The notes beneath the pieces are model-generated. The model searched no databases. It worked only from the letters and a program-made list of their open reading frames with translations, and was not told the origin of the DNA. From IMG/VR virus record IMGVR_UViG_3300028048_001599: a DNA stretch of 64,000 nt; one strand, given 5' to 3'. The stretch's first letter is position 1; every line of letters begins with the position of its first letter. Below, piece after piece: positions 3,654 through 62,417 of this stretch. The stretch comes from a virus. Taxonomy: Duplodnaviria; Heunggongvirae; Uroviricota; Caudoviricetes. The position numbers and the translations under genes were made by a program.

Positions 3654-4610
3654 ATGAGTACAAATGGACAGCGTTATATTTTAATTGACTATAATCATAT
3701 GGCTTATAAGTTTTTCTATGGGGCACAGCCTTTAAGTTCCGTAGTAAATATAAACGGTGTTGATACGATTGTAGACACCACAATAGCTTACGGTACTATC
3801 AGAGCCTTGAATAATTATGGTCAAAGGGGTAAATACTATATCGGTATTTGTTACGAGGGTGGCTCAAAGTTTCGTAAAGAATATTTTAGTGGTTCAACAA
3901 CCGAGGGTTATAAAGGAACACGTAAGTCGATGGATAATAAAATGAAGGCAGCTATTGACGTTTCAATTGATTTACTTGCTAAGTGTGGTGCCGCGCAGTA
4001 TCGTTGTTTGGGTTACGAGGCTGATGATATGATTTATTCTATTGTAAAGCGTATCAAGGCAGTTGATAAAACAACACCGATTGATATTATCACAGGTGAT
4101 GGGGATATGTTACCACTTGTAGATGAACAGGTGTCTGTATTTATGAAAGGTACTCGCACTTTTGCTTTTCCGGGTGCAAACGAATACAGGGGGTATTATC
4201 AGGTAACTCCTGAGAGCTGGGAACAATATCTCAAAAATACTTCTGCTTATAAGGATTATCTCATTCCGTATAATTCAATGTTACTTTTTAAGCTTATGAA
4301 GGGTGATAAGGCAGATAATATACCTGCAGTTACACGAGGATACGGTGGTAAAGGTTACTCAGCACTTATGCAGAAAATGCTTAATGACGGTATTGATTTT
4401 TCCGAAGTATTCCGGTATGGCGTAGACTTCGATGAAACAATACGTCCTGTGTTAAAGTACTATTTTGATACAGATACAATTGATAAGATGAAATGGATAT
4501 ACGGGGGTATGAACCTTAGAAATTTCGAGGGTGACATTGCTCCTCTGAAGCAACTTCCAATAGATAAAGTTCACGTTGTATATTCATCGATAGGTATTAA
4601 TAAAATTTAA
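3654..4610 (+). CDS. Stand-alone 5'-3' exonuclease / flap endonuclease (PolA N-terminal domain family)
   Basis: Motifs ILIDYN, FRKE..YKGTR, YEADD, IITGDGDM, GDKADNIPAV.GYG (helix-3-turn-helix). Confidence 0.9.
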   Translation: MSTNGQRYILIDYNHMAYKFFYGAQPLSSVVNINGVDTIVDTTIAYGTIRALNNYGQRGKYYIGICYEGGSKFRKEYFSGSTTEGYKGTRKSMDNKMKAAIDVSIDLLAKCGAAQYRCLGYEADDMIYSIVKRIKAVDKTTPIDIITGDGDMLPLVDEQVSVFMKGTRTFAFPGANEYRGYYQVTPESWEQYLKNTSAYKDYLIPYNSMLLFKLMKGDKADNIPAVTRGYGGKGYSALMQKMLNDGIDFSEVFRYGVDFDETIRPVLKYYFDTDTIDKMKWIYGGMNLRNFEGDIAPLKQLPIDKVHVVYSSIGINKI

Positions 4611-5042
4611 GCATTTAAGCGAGGTAAATTAATTTATGTTAATTTACAAATATATCAAGGAATGTAATAAATTTAAGGCACTAATAAAAGTAGAAGAATA
4701 TATAGGGTTTAGTGTTTAACCCTATCAAAGTAAGTGTGTAAAGCTGATTGACAAAGTTTTAATGAAGTTATTTATTATATTTTAATAGTCTTTATTAAAA
4801 ACAAAACATAATATTTTCAAGACATAAAGTTTTTAAAGTTATGTTTAGTATACGCGGGTTCTGAAGGTCAGAATTTATTAGTAACAATTTTTGACTATGA
4901 TACGAATTTTTTAACAGGTTATGTTAAAGAACATTCATTAAACAAGTCTGTAAAAACTGTAAGTAATAAAAAGGTTGATAAGTATGTTAGTGTTGGTTGG
5001 AAAGTTGATTTCAATGAATATTATACAAATCAATCTGGTAAA

Positions 5043-24995: not shown

Positions 24996-26318
24996 GGGCA
25001 AGAAGTCCTCCACCTCTTAGGTGGAGGGATGAGTTGCTCGTCAGCCGCAAGGCTGACTTTTAGTTGACTTATGATTCCGTTTATGTTATCTTTGAGATAA
25101 AGAGGTGAGAGCAACATGAACAAAGCCTACAAATTCAGGATATACCCTAATGAAGAACAAAGAATACTGATAGCAAAGACATTTGGTTGTGTCAGATTTA
25201 TCTACAATAAGATGTTGGGTGACAAGATAGAATACTATCATCAGACACAGAAAAAACTGAATAATACTCCTGCACAGTATAAAACCGAATTTGAGTGGCT
25301 GAAAGAAGTAGATAGTCTTGCCCTTGCCAATGCGCAGATGAATTTGCAGGATGCATATAATAACTTTTTCCGAGATAAGAAAGTGGGTTTCCCTAAGTTC
25401 AAATCAAAAAAAGGCAGTAAAAGAAGTTATACAACTAATTGGGTAAATGGTAATATCATTGTTCGGGATGGTATGATAAGACTTCCGAAATTAGGTTTTG
25501 TCAAAATGAAACAACACAGAAACATACCCGATGATTACAAACTGAAATCTGTTACTGTAAGTCAGAACGCAGGCGGTAAATATTTCGCAAGTATTCTTTT
25601 TGAGTATGAAGAAGAAATCACAGAGAAAAAACTTGAAAGTTTTATCGGTCTGGATTTTTCTATGCACGAATTGTATGTTGACAGCAACGGTAATTGTCCA
25701 CAGTTTCCGAGATATTACAGATTATCCGAAAAGAAACTCAAAAAAGAACAAAGAAAGCTGTCGAAAATGGTGAAAGGTTCAAGAAACAGAGAAAAACAGC
25801 GTATCAAAGTTGCTAAACTGCATGAAAAGGTTGCCAACCAAAGAAAGGATTTTCTGCACAAGCAGTCAAGACAGATAGCCAATGTTTATGATTGTGTGTA
25901 TATTGAAAATCTGAATATGCGGGCTATGGCACAGTCACTGAATTTCGGTAAATCCGTTTCGGACAACGGTTGGGGAATGTTTACGGCATTTCTGAAATAC
26001 AAGTTAGAGGAACTCGGAAAAAGACTTGTAAAAATAGATAAGTTTTTTGCAAGTTCACAGATTTGCAGCGTATGCGGATATCAAAATCCCGATACAAAAA
26101 ATTTGTCTGTCAGAGAATGGATTTGTCCTTACTGTCAAACAAATCATAACAGAGATATAAACGCTGCTATAAACATACGAAATGAAGGTATGAGAATAGT
26201 ATTAGCGTAAAAAACAAAACAAGAACCGTGGGACACACGGGGTTAGCTCGTTGATACTGTATGGGTTACCATACTTGAGCGAGAAGCCCACACCTCTATA
26301 GGTGGGGGAGTATGTCAC
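24996..26318 (+). mobile_element. Non-autonomous IS200/IS605-family element (tnpB only, IS1341-like)
   Basis: Left-end hairpin CCTCCACCT-CTT-AGGTGGAGG (25007-25027); related right-end hairpin CACCT-CTAT-AGGTG followed by ...GTATGTCAC (ends 26318); internal promoter TTGACT-17-TATCTT; no tnpA; left boundary after TAAAT is inferred. Confidence 0.85.
25116..26210 (+). CDS. tnpB: RNA-guided endonuclease TnpB (IS200/IS605 family)
   Basis: MNKAYKFRIYP N-terminus; RuvC GLDFS / IENL / NRDINAAINI; CxxC..CxxC zinc finger. Confidence 0.95.
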   Translation: MNKAYKFRIYPNEEQRILIAKTFGCVRFIYNKMLGDKIEYYHQTQKKLNNTPAQYKTEFEWLKEVDSLALANAQMNLQDAYNNFFRDKKVGFPKFKSKKGSKRSYTTNWVNGNIIVRDGMIRLPKLGFVKMKQHRNIPDDYKLKSVTVSQNAGGKYFASILFEYEEEITEKKLESFIGLDFSMHELYVDSNGNCPQFPRYYRLSEKKLKKEQRKLSKMVKGSRNREKQRIKVAKLHEKVANQRKDFLHKQSRQIANVYDCVYIENLNMRAMAQSLNFGKSVSDNGWGMFTAFLKYKLEELGKRLVKIDKFFASSQICSVCGYQNPDTKNLSVREWICPYCQTNHNRDINAAINIRNEGMRIVLA

Positions 26319-39275: not shown

Positions 39276-39313
39276 CACATGGTATTGACATTTTAAGAAA
39301 AATATGGTATAAT
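39276..39313 (+). promoter_or_regulatory. Consensus sigma-A promoter (element-wide promoter family)
   Basis: CACATGGTA-TTGACA-17-TATAAT with extended -10 TG. Confidence 0.85.
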
Positions 39314-39329
39314 TATATGTAATAATGGG

Positions 39330-39450
39330 TAAAATAGAGGGGTATAGCTCGATTTTACGCCTGTGAAGTTAATAGGTTACGAGAACGATGACGTAGGAAG
39401 TTCATTGGCTTTAGACAATGTGTAGTTCACATAGTAGCTATTGTGAGCGT
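39330..39450 (+). ncRNA. Orphan IS200/IS605-type omegaRNA-like scaffold with putative guide; no adjacent tnpB
   Basis: Order TTTACGCCTGTG...GGTTACGAG..CGATGA.GTAGGAAG..CATTGGCTTTAGACAATG.GTAGTTCAC matches the recalled IS605 right-end/omegaRNA pattern; lies directly behind a promoter. Confidence 0.6.
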
Positions 39451-45811: not shown

Positions 45812-45908
45812 GAATTGCCCAGAATCGTTTCTAAGGCGATTTTAGGGTCAGAGGGGAGTAGTTTCATAGGTTAGTAAAAAGTGGCTCAGAAAGGCTCTCA
45901 GGCAATTT
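45812..45908 (+). repeat. Imperfect-palindromic intergenic element, related copy at ~17015-17095
   Basis: Shared TAAGGC.(A/T)TTTTAG and AAAA.TGG.TCAGAAAGG.T blocks at 49-50 nt spacing; AATTGCC...GGCAATT terminal arms. Confidence 0.55.
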
Positions 45909-45949
45909 TACGAATATTGAAAAAATTTCACAAAAAGGAGTATTATATT

Positions 45950-46483
45950 ATGATTAAAGAATTTTATGATAGGATAGCGGTTAATGGGAGTGTACCTGTA
46001 GAAACTCTCGTAGAAATGACACAAAATGGGGTACTTCAAATAAGAAAAGCTGAAGACGCAGTATTTACTATTGCGGAGGTTGCAAAGATATTTGATAAGG
46101 ATTCTCGTACTGTTGCTCGTTGGGTTGAAGAAGGAAAAATAAAAGCAATAAATGGGGTAACAAGTAAAGTAATACCTGCAAAAGAACTTGAGCGTTTTTA
46201 TGAAACAATGGCAGTTTCAAAGAGTAAGACTTGTATTTATGTTCAGGCTGATACTGTTTCTGAAGTCAATGAAAATGTGAATAGAATAGTTGAAAAAATA
46301 GGGGTAAATAAATACCGCTGTAATATATTTGCTGACATTGACGGTAATGATGGTTTTGAAGCACTTTTAAAGTTCCTTATAAAGTATAAAGGTATCGTAT
46401 ACACTAATGTTTCTCTTGTAGACAAGGGTGAATATATAGGTTTAATTTTATCTGTAACAAATACCACAGTTCAGTTGATATAA
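45950..46483 (+). CDS. MerR/excisionase-type HTH fused to a degenerate serine-resolvase fold (IS607 TnpA-like, catalytically dead)
   Basis: FTIAEVAKIFDKDSRTVARWVEEGKIKA HTH; IYVQAD in place of IYARVS; IFADI and GFEALL at the expected positions; RBS AAGGAG. Confidence 0.65.
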   Translation: MIKEFYDRIAVNGSVPVETLVEMTQNGVLQIRKAEDAVFTIAEVAKIFDKDSRTVARWVEEGKIKAINGVTSKVIPAKELERFYETMAVSKSKTCIYVQADTVSEVNENVNRIVEKIGVNKYRCNIFADIDGNDGFEALLKFLIKYKGIVYTNVSLVDKGEYIGLILSVTNTTVQLI

Positions 46484-55213: not shown

Positions 55214-55254
55214 ATTTATAATAGAAGTTAGACAATTCAGAGGTGTTCAAAGAC

Positions 55255-58200
55255 ATGAGTAAATTAATTAAGGACTTTATGGAAAAGTGGTCTACACGTG
55301 GTAGTGAAAAATCAGAGTCACAATCGTATTGGATTGAGTTATTACAAACATTGGGGGTACAGAAACCCACTAACTTTATTCAATTTGAGAAGACTGTTAA
55401 GGATGGTAGGAACACAATTTATATTGATGGTTATATTCCAAAAACGAAGGTTCTAATTGAAATGAAGTCATCAACAATAAATCTTGACGATAAACTTGTA
55501 CAGTCTAATGGGGACAAACTCACTCCATTTGAACAAGCACAGAAGTATATTGTGCATCTTCCTCGTTCAGAGCATCCACGTTATGTTGTAACATGTAATT
55601 TTAAGGAAATTCGTGTATATGACATGGAGAATCCTAATAATGCACCAGTAAGTATATTTATCAACGAGTTGAATACACAGTCTTACCGTCTTTCATTTTT
55701 AATCAAAGAGGACAATGTACACCTTGAGCGTCAGGTCAAGGTATCAAAGGAGGCTGTTCAGCTTATTTCTAAATTATACGATGCATTTTCGAAGCAATAT
55801 AAGACGATTAACGAGGAGACATCAAGAAATCTCAATATTCTTTGTGTACGTATAGTATTTTGTTTATTTGCAGACGACAGTGGATTGTTTGAAAAGAACC
55901 AGTTCATCAACTTTATTCAAAATAGCAACGTAGGTCTTGCGCGTCAAAACCTTATAAACTTATTTAAGGTACTTGATACAGATGAAAAAGACCGTGACCC
56001 GTATGACACATCAGGTATAAATAGTTTTCCATACGTAAATGGTGGACTTTTCAAAGAAGTTATAACAATACCAACTATTACCGAGGACATGTTAGAAACC
56101 CTTGTCACAGTAGCTGAGTTTGACTGGTCACAGATTAGTCCTACGATATTCGGTTCTATTTTTGAGAGTACATTGTCTGCAAAGCGTAGACACGAAAATG
56201 GTATGCACTACACGTCGGTAGTCAACATTCATAAGGTAATTGACAATTTGTTCCTTGACGAGTTCTACGCTGAGTTTGACCGAATAAGGGGTATAGAGCG
56301 TAAGACACTTCGTAGTTTGGAGTTAAGGAAATTTCAGATGAAGCTTGCTACATACAAGTTTCTTGACCCTGCCTGTGGTTCAGGTAACTTCTTGACTGAA
56401 ACTTATACATGTATTCGTAGACTTGAAAATGAAATTATACGTGAAATCCGTAAGTGTGACACATCACTTTTTCCATCCACCGAGTCACCTATTAAGGTCA
56501 ACATTCATCAATTCTATGGTATCGAGATAGATGATTTTGCAGTATCCGTAGCAAGAACAGCACTATGGATAGCTGAGGCACAAATGTTTGAAGAAACAAA
56601 GGACATTGGTTTTGATATTGACTTTTTCCCACTGAAGTCAAACAATAACATTGTAGAAGGTAACGCACTGCGTATTGATTGGGCGGAAGTCGTAGGAGGG
56701 GTAGACACATTAAATTACATTATAGGTAACCCACCGTTCTTAGGTTCTAAGAAAATGTCAAAAGAGCAGCATAGTGAAGTTAATTCTATTTTTGATAAAA
56801 AAGAATGGAGCAGATCGGGAAATTTTGATTATGTACTTTGTTGGTTTAAGAAAGCTGTCGATATGATGTTAAAGAATAATAAGATAAAGGCGGCACTTGT
56901 AGCAACTAATTCAATATGTCAAGGTGAGCCAGTAGGGACTTTTTGGAAAAGGGCAATAGGTTTAGGTATTAATATCAATTTTGCATATACATCATTTTTG
57001 TGGGATAACGGGGCAGATTTGGAGGCGTCAGTTTTTGTTGTTATTGTAGGGTTTGATACTAATAATGAAAGTAACAAATATATAATAGACAGTAATGGTT
57101 TTGTTTCAGAAGCTAACAACATAAGTCCATATTTAATAGATGCTGACGATGCAATAGTTGAAACTACAAATGTTCCATTATGTAATGTACCTAAGATGTC
57201 GTTTGGTTGTATGGCTTATGACGATGGATATTTGTCAAAAATCAGTGTAGAAGATAAAAAGGATATATGTAATAAATATCCTGAGTCAGAGAAATATTTT
57301 AGACGTATATTAAGTGGTTTAGAATATTTGCATAATAAGGAAAGATGGTGTTTATGGTTAGAAGATGTGGAAATTGATGAATTAAAAGGTATACCTCCCA
57401 TATATGAGCGTGTGGAGAGTGTTAGAAGTTATAGATTAAGTAGTAAAAGCAAAGCAACATTTGAAGCAGCTCATACACCTACGTTATTTTTAATACGTAA
57501 GCAGCCAAGGAGTAATTATTTAGCTGTTCCTATGGTGTCATCTGAGAAAAGAAAATATATACCAGTAGAGTATATGACAAATGATGAAATTGTATTAAAT
57601 ACGATTTATTATATTGAGGATGCACCAAAATGGTTATTTAGTATAATGACAGCTGACTTACATACAATTTGGGTTCACTTGGTATGTGCAAGGATGAAAA
57701 AAGATATTCATTATTCAAGCACAATATGTTATAATGCATTTCCATTTATCACACCAACACCTGAAGAAGAAAACAAACTTACAGAACTTGCAAATAACAT
57801 ATTACAAGCTCGTGCAAATCATCCTAATAAATCACTTGCAGACTTGTACGACCCTGAAAATATGCCTGACGACTTGCGTAAAGCACATAAAGAAAATGAT
57901 ATCTACGTGCGTAGTCTGTATGGTTTTAAACCCGACGATACAAAGGAGCACATTCTTGCAGGACTTCTCACTTGTTATAAAGCACTGTCTACAGGTCAAA
58001 TTCCCGAAGGTTGGATAAATGTTAAGAAAACAAACTTTGTCAATAAGGAACTTGAGAAACCTGTGACACGTGCAATTAGTATAATAAGTAAGGCTAAATC
58101 TATTGTAGACCATAGAATATCTGAACTAAAACCTACAGATAATACATATGGTATGTTATCTTTTATATCGAATAAACTTAAAAACTTTTACAGTATTCTC

Positions 58201-58806
58201 ACAACTGTAGATTTCACTCCGAAAAATATGAGGAAAATAGTAACAGGGGTAGAAAAGATAGTATCACTTGCTGTTCCATCTAACTCAAAGTCACTTCAGG
58301 ATACTGCTAAGTCCTTTGAAGACATCTTGAATAATTATGAAGCCGACATTGATTATGATTACAGTACTCGTCTACTTAAACTTGTGTCTATGTTGGACTC
58401 ACTTGTTCAGATAGATACACCTGTATCGATGTCTGACTTGCGTTCAATATTAGGTATCGAATCGGAGGATGGTATAACAAATAAGTACTTCCTTAGTGAC
58501 GGGGTATCGGGTTTATTACTTGAAGATATTCAGACAGACCTTAACACTATAACACTTACCGTATCTGATGGTAGTCCTGTTCATGATTATTTATCACAGT
58601 TAATTCAAGGTAAAGCTCTTAATATGTCAACATCAACTATTTTATATGTAGCTCAGGACACCGGTTCTCTTGATTGCTTAGCTTCAAAATACGGGGTAAC
58701 AATAGTTATAACCGAAGAAAAAGGCAATAAAATCACAGCAACTATAGTAATAAATGGCAAAATCAGTGATGTATTGTTTTACTTAGACAATAATAAAGAA
58801 ATGTAA
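55255..58806 (+). CDS. MmeI-like Type IIL restriction-modification enzyme (m6A MTase + nuclease) with extra C-terminal domain
   Basis: SEKSESQSYW, IDGY..VLIEMKS nuclease motif, FPYVNGGLF, GMHYTS, motif I FLDPACGSGNFL, motif IV GNPPF, SLADLYDP..MP.DLRKAH. Confidence 0.9.
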   Translation: MSKLIKDFMEKWSTRGSEKSESQSYWIELLQTLGVQKPTNFIQFEKTVKDGRNTIYIDGYIPKTKVLIEMKSSTINLDDKLVQSNGDKLTPFEQAQKYIVHLPRSEHPRYVVTCNFKEIRVYDMENPNNAPVSIFINELNTQSYRLSFLIKEDNVHLERQVKVSKEAVQLISKLYDAFSKQYKTINEETSRNLNILCVRIVFCLFADDSGLFEKNQFINFIQNSNVGLARQNLINLFKVLDTDEKDRDPYDTSGINSFPYVNGGLFKEVITIPTITEDMLETLVTVAEFDWSQISPTIFGSIFESTLSAKRRHENGMHYTSVVNIHKVIDNLFLDEFYAEFDRIRGIERKTLRSLELRKFQMKLATYKFLDPACGSGNFLTETYTCIRRLENEIIREIRKCDTSLFPSTESPIKVNIHQFYGIEIDDFAVSVARTALWIAEAQMFEETKDIGFDIDFFPLKSNNNIVEGNALRIDWAEVVGGVDTLNYIIGNPPFLGSKKMSKEQHSEVNSIFDKKEWSRSGNFDYVLCWFKKAVDMMLKNNKIKAALVATNSICQGEPVGTFWKRAIGLGININFAYTSFLWDNGADLEASVFVVIVGFDTNNESNKYIIDSNGFVSEANNISPYLIDADDAIVETTNVPLCNVPKMSFGCMAYDDGYLSKISVEDKKDICNKYPESEKYFRRILSGLEYLHNKERWCLWLEDVEIDELKGIPPIYERVESVRSYRLSSKSKATFEAAHTPTLFLIRKQPRSNYLAVPMVSSEKRKYIPVEYMTNDEIVLNTIYYIEDAPKWLFSIMTADLHTIWVHLVCARMKKDIHYSSTICYNAFPFITPTPEEENKLTELANNILQARANHPNKSLADLYDPENMPDDLRKAHKENDIYVRSLYGFKPDDTKEHILAGLLTCYKALSTGQIPEGWINVKKTNFVNKELEKPVTRAISIISKAKSIVDHRISELKPTDNTYGMLSFISNKLKNFYSILTTVDFTPKNMRKIVTGVEKIVSLAVPSNSKSLQDTAKSFEDILNNYEADIDYDYSTRLLKLVSMLDSLVQIDTPVSMSDLRSILGIESEDGITNKYFLSDGVSGLLLEDIQTDLNTITLTVSDGSPVHDYLSQLIQGKALNMSTSTILYVAQDTGSLDCLASKYGVTIVITEEKGNKITATIVINGKISDVLFYLDNNKEM

Positions 58807-58815
58807 TATCAATAG

Positions 58816-58849
58816 AAGGTATATTTGACTTGTTCAGGTATACCTTTTT
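58816..58849 (+). terminator. Terminator-like palindrome; related copy at 58961-58989
   Basis: AAGGTATATTTGA-CTTGT-TCAGGTATACCTT followed by TTT. Confidence 0.65.
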
Positions 58850-58861
58850 AAACTGATAAAT

Positions 58862-58909
58862 CTCAAACACTCAAACACTCAAACATTCAAGCACTCAAAC
58901 ATTCAAGCA
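58862..58909 (+). repeat. Non-coding 8-bp tandem array (YTCAARCA x6)
   Basis: CTCAAACA CTCAAACA CTCAAACA TTCAAGCA CTCAAACA TTCAAGCA. Confidence 0.9.
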
Positions 58910-59064
58910 CTGTGCCAAATTCTCAGGTATGTTTATATAAGTGAAGAAAAAGAAATAAATGGGTATACTTGATAAATTCAGGTATACCTCTATTCATTTT
59001 TCAACATGAGTTATTTTGTCATCACTCACGTTCATAATTAACAATAATTTCAAGGAGTGATAAT

Positions 59065-59373
59065 ATGAATTACTTATCTCCAATAATAGGATTGAACAGA
59101 AATCAGATATCAGCACTAAATCCTAATGATTGGTGTATATTTCAAGATTTAAGTTTCAACGGTTACAGTTATCTTTATCTTATGGTTTGTGCTCCAACAC
59201 TTCAAGGTTTTAAATCGAGACGTGAAGCTTTGGCAGTACTTACAAAGTATGGCGTTCGTAACACACGTGAGAACTCACAGCAAGTAAGAGTTGGTGTATT
59301 TACAATAAGAGAAGTAGCGAACATGTTCATGAATAAGGCATACCAAGTAGTTGGGGTTGATTTGCAGATTTAG
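59065..59373 (+). CDS. Hypothetical protein
   Basis: 102 aa ORF with RBS AAGGAG. Confidence 0.7.
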   Translation: MNYLSPIIGLNRNQISALNPNDWCIFQDLSFNGYSYLYLMVCAPTLQGFKSRREALAVLTKYGVRNTRENSQQVRVGVFTIREVANMFMNKAYQVVGVDLQI

Positions 59374-59486
59374 GATTCTGAAAATACTTGAAAGGTGTTT
59401 ACAGAATTTTCAATTTTAGGTTTTTACGTTGTCGAAACTAACAAAATTTTGTATGTCAATTTGTTGCTATTTTTATTATTTAACTG

Positions 59487-59515
59487 TTGATTTTTTCTAT
59501 TTTTTGTTGTATAAT
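59487..59515 (+). promoter_or_regulatory. Sigma-A promoter of the HTH-tnpB unit
   Basis: TTGATT-17-TATAAT. Confidence 0.6.
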
Positions 59516-59547
59516 AGAATAAATTGAAAGAAAGTGGTGAGTGGTTT

Positions 59548-59817
59548 ATGAAAAAACCTACAAAATTGCAATACTATAGGAAATTTGTGAATGGGTTTAC
59601 AGTAAACGAATTATCAGCTATAACAGGTATAACAGTAAGTTCAATAAATAAGTACGAAACAGGGGTAATGGATTTGAATAATGCATCTATTACTATTGTT
59701 AAAAGACTTGCAAGAGCATTAAATTGTACAACAGATGATTTAACAGACTCACTTGATGACATAGACAAGGGGTTGAATAGTTATGATAAGAACAGTAACA
59801 ATAAGGTTAAGACCTGA
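59548..59817 (+). CDS. Xre/Cro-type HTH regulator, paralog of 13902-14108
   Basis: YYRK..FTVNELSAITGITVSSINKYETG..NAS..VKRLARALNCTTDDL; 3' end overlaps the tnpB start. Confidence 0.85.
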   Translation: MKKPTKLQYYRKFVNGFTVNELSAITGITVSSINKYETGVMDLNNASITIVKRLARALNCTTDDLTDSLDDIDKGLNSYDKNSNNKVKT

Positions 59818-60898
59818 TAAACTACAAAGTAATAAAATGATGCGAATAGCTGGTTGTAGTAGGTTTTGTTATAATGAACTCCTTAAATATTGGGATTCAT
59901 ATTATACTGAAGTAGATTGTAGTCCATCTGTATATGAATTGCGCGATTATGTAACAATGTTAAAACAACAATACGTGTGGTTAAATGAGTTACCATATCA
60001 CACGATGAATGGAGTAATAAAGAACTTACAGACTGCATTTAGTAAATTCTTCAAAAATAAAATTGACCATCCTTCTATACATAAGAGGAATAGTAACCAT
60101 ATATCCTTTCCCATTAGGACAGATAGGATAAAATTTTGTGGTAATGTTATAGTAATTCCGAGCATAGGAAGAATGAGATTCAAGAACATATCTAAGTATG
60201 AATTAAATGGTATAAAAACCGCGTCACTTGTGTATGATGGTTTATGTTGGTACTTAAAAATAGCAACATGTGTATATACTAACACATGTTGTCAAAAACA
60301 AGGTAAGATAGGTATAGACTTGGGGTATCGAACACTTGCAAGTGCCTACGATGGAACTGATACTTACACCTATGAAAACATAATGAATGAAGATGAGACT
60401 GAGGGTTCTGACCATATACAAAAGTTAGAAAAAAGACTACAAGTCATAGATAAAATAATCTCAGATAAAAAGAAACTCAATAAAACATCAAATAACATAA
60501 ATAAGTTATATTATAAACGTGCGAAACTAAAAAGACGTATGGCAAATATACAAAGAACATATCAGCATATTATATCAAAGTATATTATAAGTAGACGACC
60601 TATGAAGATTATATTTGAAACATTAGATATATCAGAACAAAAAGCAAAGGATAATATACTACCCAATAGATATAAATTGACTGCATTGTACCAATTCTAC
60701 ACATTTATAATATACAAGGCTGAGGAATTAGGTATACAGATTATTCGTGTTGATAAATATTATCCATCAACAAAGCGATGTTGTAAATGTGGTGCAATAA
60801 ATGAAGTTGGTGTAAGTAAGGTATATACATGTAAAAATTGTAATCTGAAGATAGATAGGGATATAAATGCTTCAATAAACTTATATAATTATGTTTAA
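59783..60898 (+). CDS. tnpB: Divergent TnpB/Cas12f-like RNA-guided endonuclease (IS607-type), no cognate transposase
   Basis: MIRTVTIRLRP..AGCSRFCYN N-terminus; RuvC GIDLG / IFETL / DRDINASINL intact; YPSTKRC..C..C..C zinc finger. Confidence 0.85.
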   Translation: MIRTVTIRLRPDKLQSNKMMRIAGCSRFCYNELLKYWDSYYTEVDCSPSVYELRDYVTMLKQQYVWLNELPYHTMNGVIKNLQTAFSKFFKNKIDHPSIHKRNSNHISFPIRTDRIKFCGNVIVIPSIGRMRFKNISKYELNGIKTASLVYDGLCWYLKIATCVYTNTCCQKQGKIGIDLGYRTLASAYDGTDTYTYENIMNEDETEGSDHIQKLEKRLQVIDKIISDKKKLNKTSNNINKLYYKRAKLKRRMANIQRTYQHIISKYIISRRPMKIIFETLDISEQKAKDNILPNRYKLTALYQFYTFIIYKAEELGIQIIRVDKYYPSTKRCCKCGAINEVGVSKVYTCKNCNLKIDRDINASINLYNYV

Positions 60899-61015
60899 TG
60901 TCTAAATAACACAGATAATAGCAATAAACAGTCGTTTCCGTAACACGACTGTATAAATTAGCCTATAACATAGGTAGGTTGCTTTCACGCAACGGTAAAG
61001 TTGATTTTTCAATAT
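60899..61015 (+). ncRNA. Putative compact omegaRNA of the second TnpB
   Basis: Three hairpins (ACAGTCGT/ACGACTGT, CCTAT/ATAGG, GTTGC/GCAAC) ending GCAACGG at 60995, resembling IS607 right ends; putative guide 60996-61015. Confidence 0.5.
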
Positions 61016-61042
61016 TTTCAATTTTATTTTACGGTGATTTAG

Positions 61043-61384
61043 ATGGATATTAAGACTGAAGTTAGAAAAAATATCGTCATAACCAATAAGTTATCTACAC
61101 ACCTTATGAAATTGTACGGTAGAGAACTACCAAACGGTACTACGGAATATTACTACATAGATCGAAAATGGTACTATCACAAGTTAGTTATTGTATCATC
61201 AACAATCAAAGAAAATGGGGTAAATAGACACTACATCATGGATATAAAATGTAATAATGCAGTAGGTTTCGCCGAAATGTCAGGTGAAATATATTACGGT
61301 ATTGAAAGAATAGCAACATTAAGTAATTGTATTCAATACTTAAGAATGAATTACGGAAAACTAGTCAAAAAGGAAACAATATAA
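61043..61384 (+). CDS. Hypothetical protein
   Basis: 113 aa ORF. Confidence 0.65.
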   Translation: MDIKTEVRKNIVITNKLSTHLMKLYGRELPNGTTEYYYIDRKWYYHKLVIVSSTIKENGVNRHYIMDIKCNNAVGFAEMSGEIYYGIERIATLSNCIQYLRMNYGKLVKKETI

Positions 61385-61388
61385 AGGA

Positions 61389-61853
61389 GTGAAAACAATG
61401 ACAAAGGAAGAACGTATAAGTTTAGCATGTAACATAATAAATAAAAACGAGAGTGTTGGCAAATCTACGATACTGAATTATAAGTTCACTAATTCAAAGT
61501 CCCATGGATTACCTGTATGTACATTAAGACTCGGAGATTCTTGGGTTGTGACCCATAGTGGTACAGGTTGTGACTTGTTAGGTGGTTGTCTTGGTGATAT
61601 AATTGCGGAGTTAGGACGTAAACAACTTAAGGCTATAGCGATTAAAAATGGTACTTACGGTTATGGCTCAGTAAACGGGGTATATGGTCTGTCATACTAC
61701 AATGATAAAGTCGAAATAAACGGTCGAGCAGGGGTATCTGTCGTTGCAAATATAGCATCTCTTATCGGTTACACGATAGATATTAATAATTTCACTTCTA
61801 ACGGAAGACCAATAAAAAATGGTGGTATGATTCGCATTAAAAAGCAAGGTTAA
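61389..61853 (+). CDS. Hypothetical protein
   Basis: RBS AAAGGAG; likely start ATG 61398. Confidence 0.7.
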   Translation: MKTMTKEERISLACNIINKNESVGKSTILNYKFTNSKSHGLPVCTLRLGDSWVVTHSGTGCDLLGGCLGDIIAELGRKQLKAIAIKNGTYGYGSVNGVYGLSYYNDKVEINGRAGVSVVANIASLIGYTIDINNFTSNGRPIKNGGMIRIKKQG

Positions 61854-62027
61854 TTTTTCAAAAGTTTTCTTAACTTCTGAAAAATCAGATTACATGAAGA
61901 ATTTACAAGTTTAAAAACCTATCAACTTTTATAGTTTAAACTATTGTAACTTTTTCTAATTTTAACCTCGTTCGTCTGATGTTGAATTGATGGTATCAAA
62001 TAATTTACAGTAGAATTATTTTAATAA

Positions 62028-62417
62028 TTGTTATTTTTCAAACTACATGGGGAGATGATTATTTTGGACATTAAGATTGTAGAAGTAACCACAAAAAGAG
62101 ACTTGGACAGTTTATATGACGACTGGGCTCTAACACTTGAAGGTTTGGATTTAGCAAGTATCCCCGAATTTGTAAACTGGGTCATGCAATATACAACATT
62201 TAAAAGTGCTACAGTTAGAGTATATGTAACAAGAGGTGCTACAATGAATAAGTATTATGGTTTAAGTGGTAACAATCGTTATCCCGATGATTTAAACATA
62301 GTTTCAATCAAGAACTCATCAATGGTCAACAGTAATGCTGTTGCTATACCCAGATTTCAAGTAGGAGGACGTTGGTTCACGGATATAGTTGATAATAACG
62401 CAGTTCGCAATAATTAA
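62028..62417 (+). CDS. Hypothetical protein
   Basis: ORF of ~115-129 aa, start uncertain; C-terminal GGRWFTDIVDNN. Confidence 0.65.
   Translation: MLFFKLHGEMIILDIKIVEVTTKRDLDSLYDDWALTLEGLDLASIPEFVNWVMQYTTFKSATVRVYVTRGATMNKYYGLSGNNRYPDDLNIVSIKNSSMVNSNAVAIPRFQVGGRWFTDIVDNNAVRNN

Follow-up and report, generated by a model that had tools for sequence, protein, structure and literature searches.

The 1678-bp stretch at positions 59357–61034 of the window (that is, the whole 64,000-nt stretch of viral DNA analysed here, of which position 1 is the first base) is an insertion that is polymorphic, was mobile recently and has kept its genes intact, and it is not domesticated; its sequence features match those of a non-autonomous IS607/IStron-type (OMEGA) element that carries a small Xre-family HTH gene in place of the transposase. 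The features to which the discussion refers are these:

59353–59356, + strand: GGGG flank (TAM-like motif) abutting the left end; GGGG precedes all 7 left junctions of the clade
59357–61034, + strand: whole inserted element, 1678 bp; empty site in L010/L011
59357–59547, + strand: non-coding left end, 191 nt, with the promoter and one TTTTCAAT repeat and without a ribozyme
59548–59817, + strand: Xre-family HTH gene, 89 aa (Pfam HTH_3, 2.6e-10)
59783–60898, + strand: tnpB, 371 aa, RuvC D-E-D triad and zinc ribbon intact (Pfam, clade alignment, NCBIfam guided_TnpB)
60928–61034, + strand: omegaRNA scaffold (covariation, fold z-score −3.5, conservation up to ACGG)
60928–60952, + strand: SL1 (nexus), loop CCGUAA at 60938–60943
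60962–60974, + strand: SL2
60978–60993, + strand: SL3
61029–61034, + strand: pseudoknot partner UUACGG, the last 6 bases of the element
61035–61054, + strand: predicted guide/target TGATTTAGATGGATATTAAG, the first flank bases past the right end

Boundaries of the insertion and evidence for mobility

Two scaffolds from a sister replicon (L010 and L011), reached via a homologue of the downstream gene at 61043–61384, carry the site in its empty form, ...GTTGGGG/TGATTTAGATGG... (a slash here marks each junction), with flanks 95–98% identical to those in the window; thus 58959–59363 corresponds to L010 5595–5998 at 98%, and 61033–62203 to L010 5991–7161 at 95%. In both scaffolds a 99-aa gene ends flush with the ATG of a 113-aa gene (...ACCAAGTAGTTGGGG/TGATTTAGATGGATATTAAG...), and in L010 the GGGG directly adjoins the target. 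The occupied allele in the window reads ...GTAGTTGGGG/TTGATTTGCAG ... ATTTTACGG/TGATTTAGATGG..., and comparing the empty junction GTTGGGG/TGATTT with the occupied arrangement GGGG/TTGA...ACGG/TGATTT therefore fixes the insertion as 59357–61034, ambiguous by a 3-nt microhomology (GGT) and without target duplication. The right end is ...UUUUACGG at 61034; the earlier note on this DNA had taken GCAACGG (60995) as the right end, which is wrong by 39 nt. As to the effects on the neighbouring genes, the C-terminus of the upstream protein changes from VI (stop) to VDLQI (stop), and the GGGGTGAT ribosome-binding site is parted from the ATG at 61043, leaving ACGGTGAT.

Promoter, HTH gene and tnpB all fall within the insertion. 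According to the earlier note, an ordinary insertion would have been recognised by empty-site alleles in relatives together with a left end inside the HTH gene; the empty alleles do exist, while the left end lies 191 nt upstream of that gene, so that the mobile element carries the HTH as cargo.

Further copies exist at other sites. A second, 97% identical, occurs elsewhere in L010 following GAGGGG, and a third-site copy, 93% identical, occurs in L002 following ATGGGG; in four more relatives (L003, L004, L007 and L008) the left end again starts right after GGGG. The right ends of relatives, where present, read (U/C)UUACGG and then pass into unrelated sequence. The combination of a GG core, a G-rich adjacent motif, a CGG right end and no target duplication is thus seen here and at six further junctions. 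In a more distant relative, L012 (480–640; downstream gene 61% identical), an 82-nt intergenic spacer with a hairpin lies at the junction; relative to the predicted target the site there has five mismatches and no GGGG, so it is probably not cleavable.

Given an empty site in so close a relative, the element is a piece of selfish DNA that has been mobile recently, not a tool tamed by the host. This bears directly on the interpretation favoured in the earlier note, which called the unit “domesticated” and “long-resident” and expected to find neither empty-site alleles nor extra copies, when in fact both exist. On such an interpretation the HTH, TnpB and omegaRNA would form a fixed, immobile operon acting as a programmable weapon or regulator, and one can see why it was tempting: the transposase is absent from both element and window, the composition is that of the host replicon (including two host-type GGGGTA words within the element), and both genes are under purifying selection. 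Against it stand not only the empty allele with its 95–98% identical flanks and the near-identical copies at two other loci, but also the occurrence of the element at seven loci in seven different gene contexts, a predicted guide that is simply its own flank, as in a selfish element, with no host or rival gene matched elsewhere, and a RuvC domain that is intact, unlike that of domesticated TldR proteins. We therefore correct the domestication reading, which we regard as very improbable indeed.

The HTH and tnpB genes

Most of what the earlier note had described of the coding part of the unit holds good. The Xre HTH gene does overlap tnpB, by 35 nt (59783–59817), its start at ATG 59548 being fixed by the MKKPTKL start of its homologues, and it does occupy the usual position of tnpA in IS607 elements as part of the unit, since an HTH of 74–89 aa lies directly upstream of tnpB in every member of the clade. 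These HTH proteins align over their full length with 18 invariant residues, and dN/dS values of 0.04–0.09 indicate purifying selection. One further observation concerns synonymous divergence, which between the window (59548–59781) and L002 (785–1018) is 1.24 in the HTH gene as against only 0.17 in tnpB of the same pair; this mismatch suggests recombination between element lineages.

TnpB has three recognisable Pfam domains, namely an N-terminal HTH_OrfB_IS605, the RuvC-containing OrfB_IS605 (where the match, at 25.1 bits, is under its cut-off of 30.5) and a Cas12f1-like TNB corresponding to the zinc ribbon. It passes the NCBIfam model guided_TnpB (180 bits, cut-off 100) and matches PHROG 506 at 1e-71; the two more specific NCBIfam models, IS607_TnpB (80.9 bits, cut-off 350) and IS200_TnpB (169 bits, cut-off 425), are not reached. 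The nearest solved structures are the TnpB chains 8iaz and 8h1j/8exa. All three RuvC acidic residues said earlier to be retained (D179, E279 and D360) are invariant in the clade alignment, as are the zinc-finger cysteines C333, C336, C350 and C353, and a dN/dS of about 0.27 again indicates purifying selection. The protein looks catalytically competent. The element is AT-rich like the adjoining DNA, as had been stated (GC 0.30), and GGGGTA occurs within it at 59662 and 60322.

The left end, the promoter and the end repeats

A promoter scan places a sigma70-like promoter, TTGATT-17-TATAAT, at 59487–59515, in agreement with the earlier proposal of a promoter ahead of the HTH gene; such sites are no more numerous in the region than in shuffled sequence, and the support comes from its position and from its conservation in L002, L003 and L004. 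Dyads nearby could be due to chance in such AT-rich DNA, and are at most a candidate operator. Searches of Rfam yielded no family for the left end, and Intron_gpI gave no match in 58000–62000 or 58800–59600 even with lax filters.

The repeat TTTTCAAT is found once in the left end (59407–59414) and as a tandem pair (61006 and 61015) in the A/U spacer of the right end, out of six copies in all on the + strand of the 64-kb window. One might imagine from this that the HTH is itself part of the mobility machinery, binding repeats of this type at both ends and bringing about excision and insertion with TnpB or a host recombinase, without TnpA. It would fit such a role that the HTH replaces TnpA in every clade member, that three of the six repeat copies fall within the element ends, and that new GGGG sites have been reached with no transposase in view. 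However, a catalytic domain is lacking from this 89-aa Xre HTH, there is no co-variation across subfamilies between the end repeats and its recognition helix, and non-autonomous IS607 elements and IStrons without ORF A are common and are accounted for by supply in trans (PMC4227781; 10.1101/2023.11.20.567912). The idea thus seems to us decidedly improbable.

The omegaRNA and the predicted guide

The three hairpins that the earlier note saw downstream of tnpB are confirmed by covariation: 98% of cells pair, and both sides change in 10 of the 24 pairs, whereas controls with slid partners give only 29–53% pairing. In addition, the SL1 loop CCGUAA is the exact complement of the terminal UUACGG, giving 6 bp of which both strands are invariant, and a pseudoknot between the nexus loop and the 3′ end is already known from TnpB omegaRNAs (bioRxiv 10.1101/2023.11.20.567912). 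Conservation of the scaffold stops at ACGG in all loci. As a pseudoknot partner the GCAACGG at 60995 is weaker (4 bp), besides lying inside the insertion.

Between SL3 and the pseudoknot partner there is an A/U spacer of 33 nt, which holds the two tandem TTTTCAAT repeats. Directly 3′ of SL3, where the earlier note had put the right end, is an invariant CGGUAAA (60993–60999 in the window, and at the equivalent position in all relatives), which may represent a second scaffold end or a weaker partner for the nexus loop, competing with the terminal UUACGG. This motif and the length of the spacer count against a model in which the scaffold ends at the terminal UUACGG.

With the right end at 61034 and the UUACGG pseudoknot there, the predicted guide is therefore 61035–61054, which spans the stop codon of the neighbouring gene and the ATG at 61043. 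It matches the empty alleles in L010 and L011 at 20 of 20 positions, beside GGGG, and has no other match with three or fewer mismatches in the window. The guide proposed earlier, 60996–61015, is to be rejected, as it lies inside the element rather than in the flank, shows partial conservation from one locus to another and matches no target in the window.

No Rfam family, RAGATH-18 included, matches the omegaRNA, and a scan with the scaffold pattern gave no match in viral contigs; the sole match in JGI metagenomes (L016) lacks a complementary stem and was set aside as due to chance. Two orphan guide-RNA relics in the window, at 4683–4835 and 39276–39450, are unrelated to the HTH-TnpB element by BLAST.

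The HTH-TnpB clade and its intron-bearing members

Relatives were searched for among 5.8 billion proteins, where five close clusters appear at 48–91% identity before a fall to 33%; in a library of 1.84 billion representatives the clade falls into one 50% cluster at 423 bits, and the best match after it has 164 bits. From IMG/VR came a single distant TnpB and, for the flanking genes, no relatives; the phage collection gave no DNA match. Synteny of the gene pair, which the earlier note had suggested checking, is kept at all seven loci of the clade and the surrounding genes are different at each; the HTH and TnpB genes thus form a stable module of two genes that move together. The closest outgroup TnpBs (30–35% identity) have no HTH upstream. 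The module defines a small, well separated clade, and in the TnpB tree, another of the checks suggested earlier, it is monophyletic (100/99).

Not all members of the clade have the same left end. Directly upstream of the HTH there are matches to group I introns in L007 (43.3 bits), L008 (39.4) and L004 (24), all below the Rfam gathering score of 50 (E-values 6e-8 to 7e-4) and all at the same position; the window element and those in L002, L010 and L003 have no ribozyme. The ribozyme-bearing elements extend over L004 3953–6280, L007 4139–6278 and L008 4161–6295. The L007 element interrupts, near codon 205, a gene for a FEN-like exonuclease, the homologue of which in the window (3654–4610, 318 aa) is unbroken. 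In the same three members about 50 nt of the 5′ part are complementary to the A/U spacer close to the 3′ end, with pairing energies of −33 to −36 kcal/mol as against −16 to −21 for shuffled sequences; in the window the corresponding pairing is weak (−17.8 against −13 ± 2.6). The gene downstream of the L004 element has the GGGG site as its ribosome-binding site, which splicing would restore.

These observations raise the possibility that the window element is a decayed IStron, whose ancestral left-end group I ribozyme was lost in this lineage after landing between genes; the A/U-rich end repeats would then be what is left of a long-range pairing that brought the 3′ splice site to the ribozyme, rather than protein-binding sites. 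The introns upstream of the HTH in L007, L008 and L004, the splitting by the L007 element of a gene that is whole in the window, and the strong end complementarity in all three all speak for such a history. On the other hand, the left end of the window element has no significant similarity to the intron-bearing left ends, its end pairing is weak, and the intron-bearing trio form a nested clade (96/96) with intron-less members on both basal branches, so that acquiring the ribozyme once is more parsimonious than losing it twice. The tree thus slightly favours a single gain, and we consider the decay of an IStron unlikely, although still deserving some weight.

Relationship to known systems

Of the nearest annotated TnpBs, at about 31% identity, some adjoin IS607 transposases and others come from C. 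botulinum plasmids and phages in which IS607-type IStrons reside; the IS607 relatives L013–L015 carry RAGATH-18 (65–70 bits). No serine recombinase TnpA is present in the element, nor any transposase in the 64-kb window, so the earlier description of the unit as transposase-free stands. An ORF at 45881–46483 (200 aa, HTH_17/MerR-like) is weakly similar to the HTH part of IS607 transposases; it scores 22 bits with the IS607 model, for which the cut-off is 110, and has no resolvase domain.

The closest parallel is with the group B IStrons, which target GG, are often devoid of ORF A and end in AT-rich stretches complementary to each other (PMC4227781), and in particular with CboIStron of C. botulinum, for which a TAM of 5′-TGGG-3′, a scaffold end UCGG, and three stem-loops with a nexus pseudoknot are described (bioRxiv 10.1101/2023.11.20.567912). 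Shared with these, and with the TnpA-less copy on p1BKT015925, are a G-rich adjacent motif ending in GG, a scaffold ending in CGG, the three stem-loops and the pseudoknot between nexus loop and 3′ end, the use of the flank as guide, the lack of target-site duplication, frequent loss of tnpA and (in the relatives of the window element) AT-rich complementary ends; three members of the clade also have a group I ribozyme, one of them splitting a gene. The differences are that an Xre HTH occupies the tnpA position in all clade members, that the window copy has no ribozyme, that TnpB is only about 31% identical and the omegaRNA does not match RAGATH-18, that the motif is GGGG rather than TGGG, and that the pseudoknot partner comes after an additional A/U spacer containing tandem repeats.

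Small DNA-binding accessory proteins are not without precedent in such elements. In IS605 elements, Arc is a transposon-encoded repressor that binds the promoter of these elements, has a gene overlapping tnpA, and restrains expression of tnpA and tnpB (Moon et al. 2026 preprint, 10.64898/2026.09.24.754181). It resembles the present HTH in the placement of its gene, which lies at the 5′ end of a TnpB element, follows a strong promoter belonging to that element and overlaps the next gene; however, Arc is a ribbon-helix-helix protein in an IS605 element and accompanies TnpA, whereas the HTH (Pfam HTH_3) belongs to an IS607-like element and replaces TnpA, so that the likeness is one of functional analogy only. 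Some serine-recombinase-linked TnpB transposons (e.g. branch Ser-3) occasionally carry an extra HTH protein (Altae-Tran et al. 2023, PMC10691335); there it is rare, uncharacterised and beside the recombinase, while here it is constant across the clade and there is no recombinase. Lastly, TldR and other domesticated TnpBs also combine a TnpB homologue and omegaRNA with an adjoining regulator-type gene and no transposase. Those proteins are nuclease-dead and fixed beside host genes, with guides against host promoters, in contrast to the intact RuvC, polymorphic locus and own-flank guide found here.

What has been found, then, is a naturally occurring TnpB element with a small Xre regulator as the stable replacement for its transposase, some members of the clade being IStrons and others not. 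With a 371-aa nuclease, a scaffold of about 107 nt and a GGGG motif, it is also a candidate compact editor.

A proposed mechanism

The model that we regard as probable, with reasonable confidence, is that of a non-autonomous IS607-type element in which an HTH has taken the place of the transposase and represses, flank-guided TnpB carries out homing, and mobilisation occurs in trans. The HTH, tnpB and the omegaRNA would be transcribed together from the single internal promoter, and TnpB would bind the 3′ scaffold, guided by the first 20 or so bases of the flank (61035–61054). In a co-resident relative, the empty allele (GGGG followed by TGATTTAGATGG...) would, going by the IS605/IS607 literature, be cut by the TnpB complex, and recombinational repair would then copy the element into the cut allele; we infer, in other words, homing, a kind of gene drive. 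The locus that already carries the element should escape, since ACGG and not GGGG adjoins the target there. The earlier suggestion of a use against competing elements would be compatible with such homing.

By analogy with Arc, the most likely role of the HTH is to repress the promoter of the element that encodes it, which would extend the finding of an own repressor in IS605 elements to the IS607/IStron side, while new GGGG sites are most likely reached by means of an IS607 serine transposase supplied in trans, as has been proposed for the many TnpA-less IS607 elements and IStrons (PMC4227781; 10.1101/2023.11.20.567912). With an occupied allele, an empty allele, and both the adjacent motif and the guide predicted, homing, self-immunity and regulation by the HTH are all open to direct tests.

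Replicon context

The element lies in an AT-rich replicon with all genes on the + strand and a pronounced strand bias of G-runs: within 1–64000, GGGGTA occurs 110 times on the + strand and not at all on the − strand, and GGGG runs number 191 and 8 respectively. The GGGGTA bias is present also in the host DNA of L002, L003, L007, L008 and L010, is weaker in L004 (6 forward, 1 reverse) and is absent around the outgroup TnpBs. The landing motif is therefore both abundant and one-sided, which explains why every copy is co-directional with the host genes.

It is tempting to go further, and to suppose that the clade has specialised on a family of GGGGTA-writing replicons; GGGG being the core of GGGGTA, which recurs every 500 bp or so, a same-strand landing site would be available every few hundred bases. 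The HTH would on that view have taken over the end-binding of TnpA, and spread between co-resident replicons would rely on TnpB cutting and recombination, with no dedicated transposase. We think this rather improbable, and prefer the model of HTH repression and mobilisation in trans given above.

Some other features of the region may be recorded here. A second TnpB gene, at 25116–26210, is intact (364 aa) and passes NCBIfam IS200_TnpB (430.6 bits, cut-off 425); being only 24% identical to the TnpB described above, it belongs to a different element. It has no adjoining tnpA and, as the earlier note had remarked in setting the two apart, contains no GGGGTA, unlike the present element. At 55243–58806 there is an MmeI-type restriction-modification fusion of 1187 aa, with a C-terminal extension of about 270 aa past MmeI_C; in L010, the sister scaffold, other genes are found here. 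Positions 58840–58915, between this MmeI-like gene and a 102-aa ORF, consist of CTCAAACA/TTCAAGCA-like heptamer and octamer repeats, followed by a 12-bp hairpin (58961–58989), at which the homology to L010 starts.
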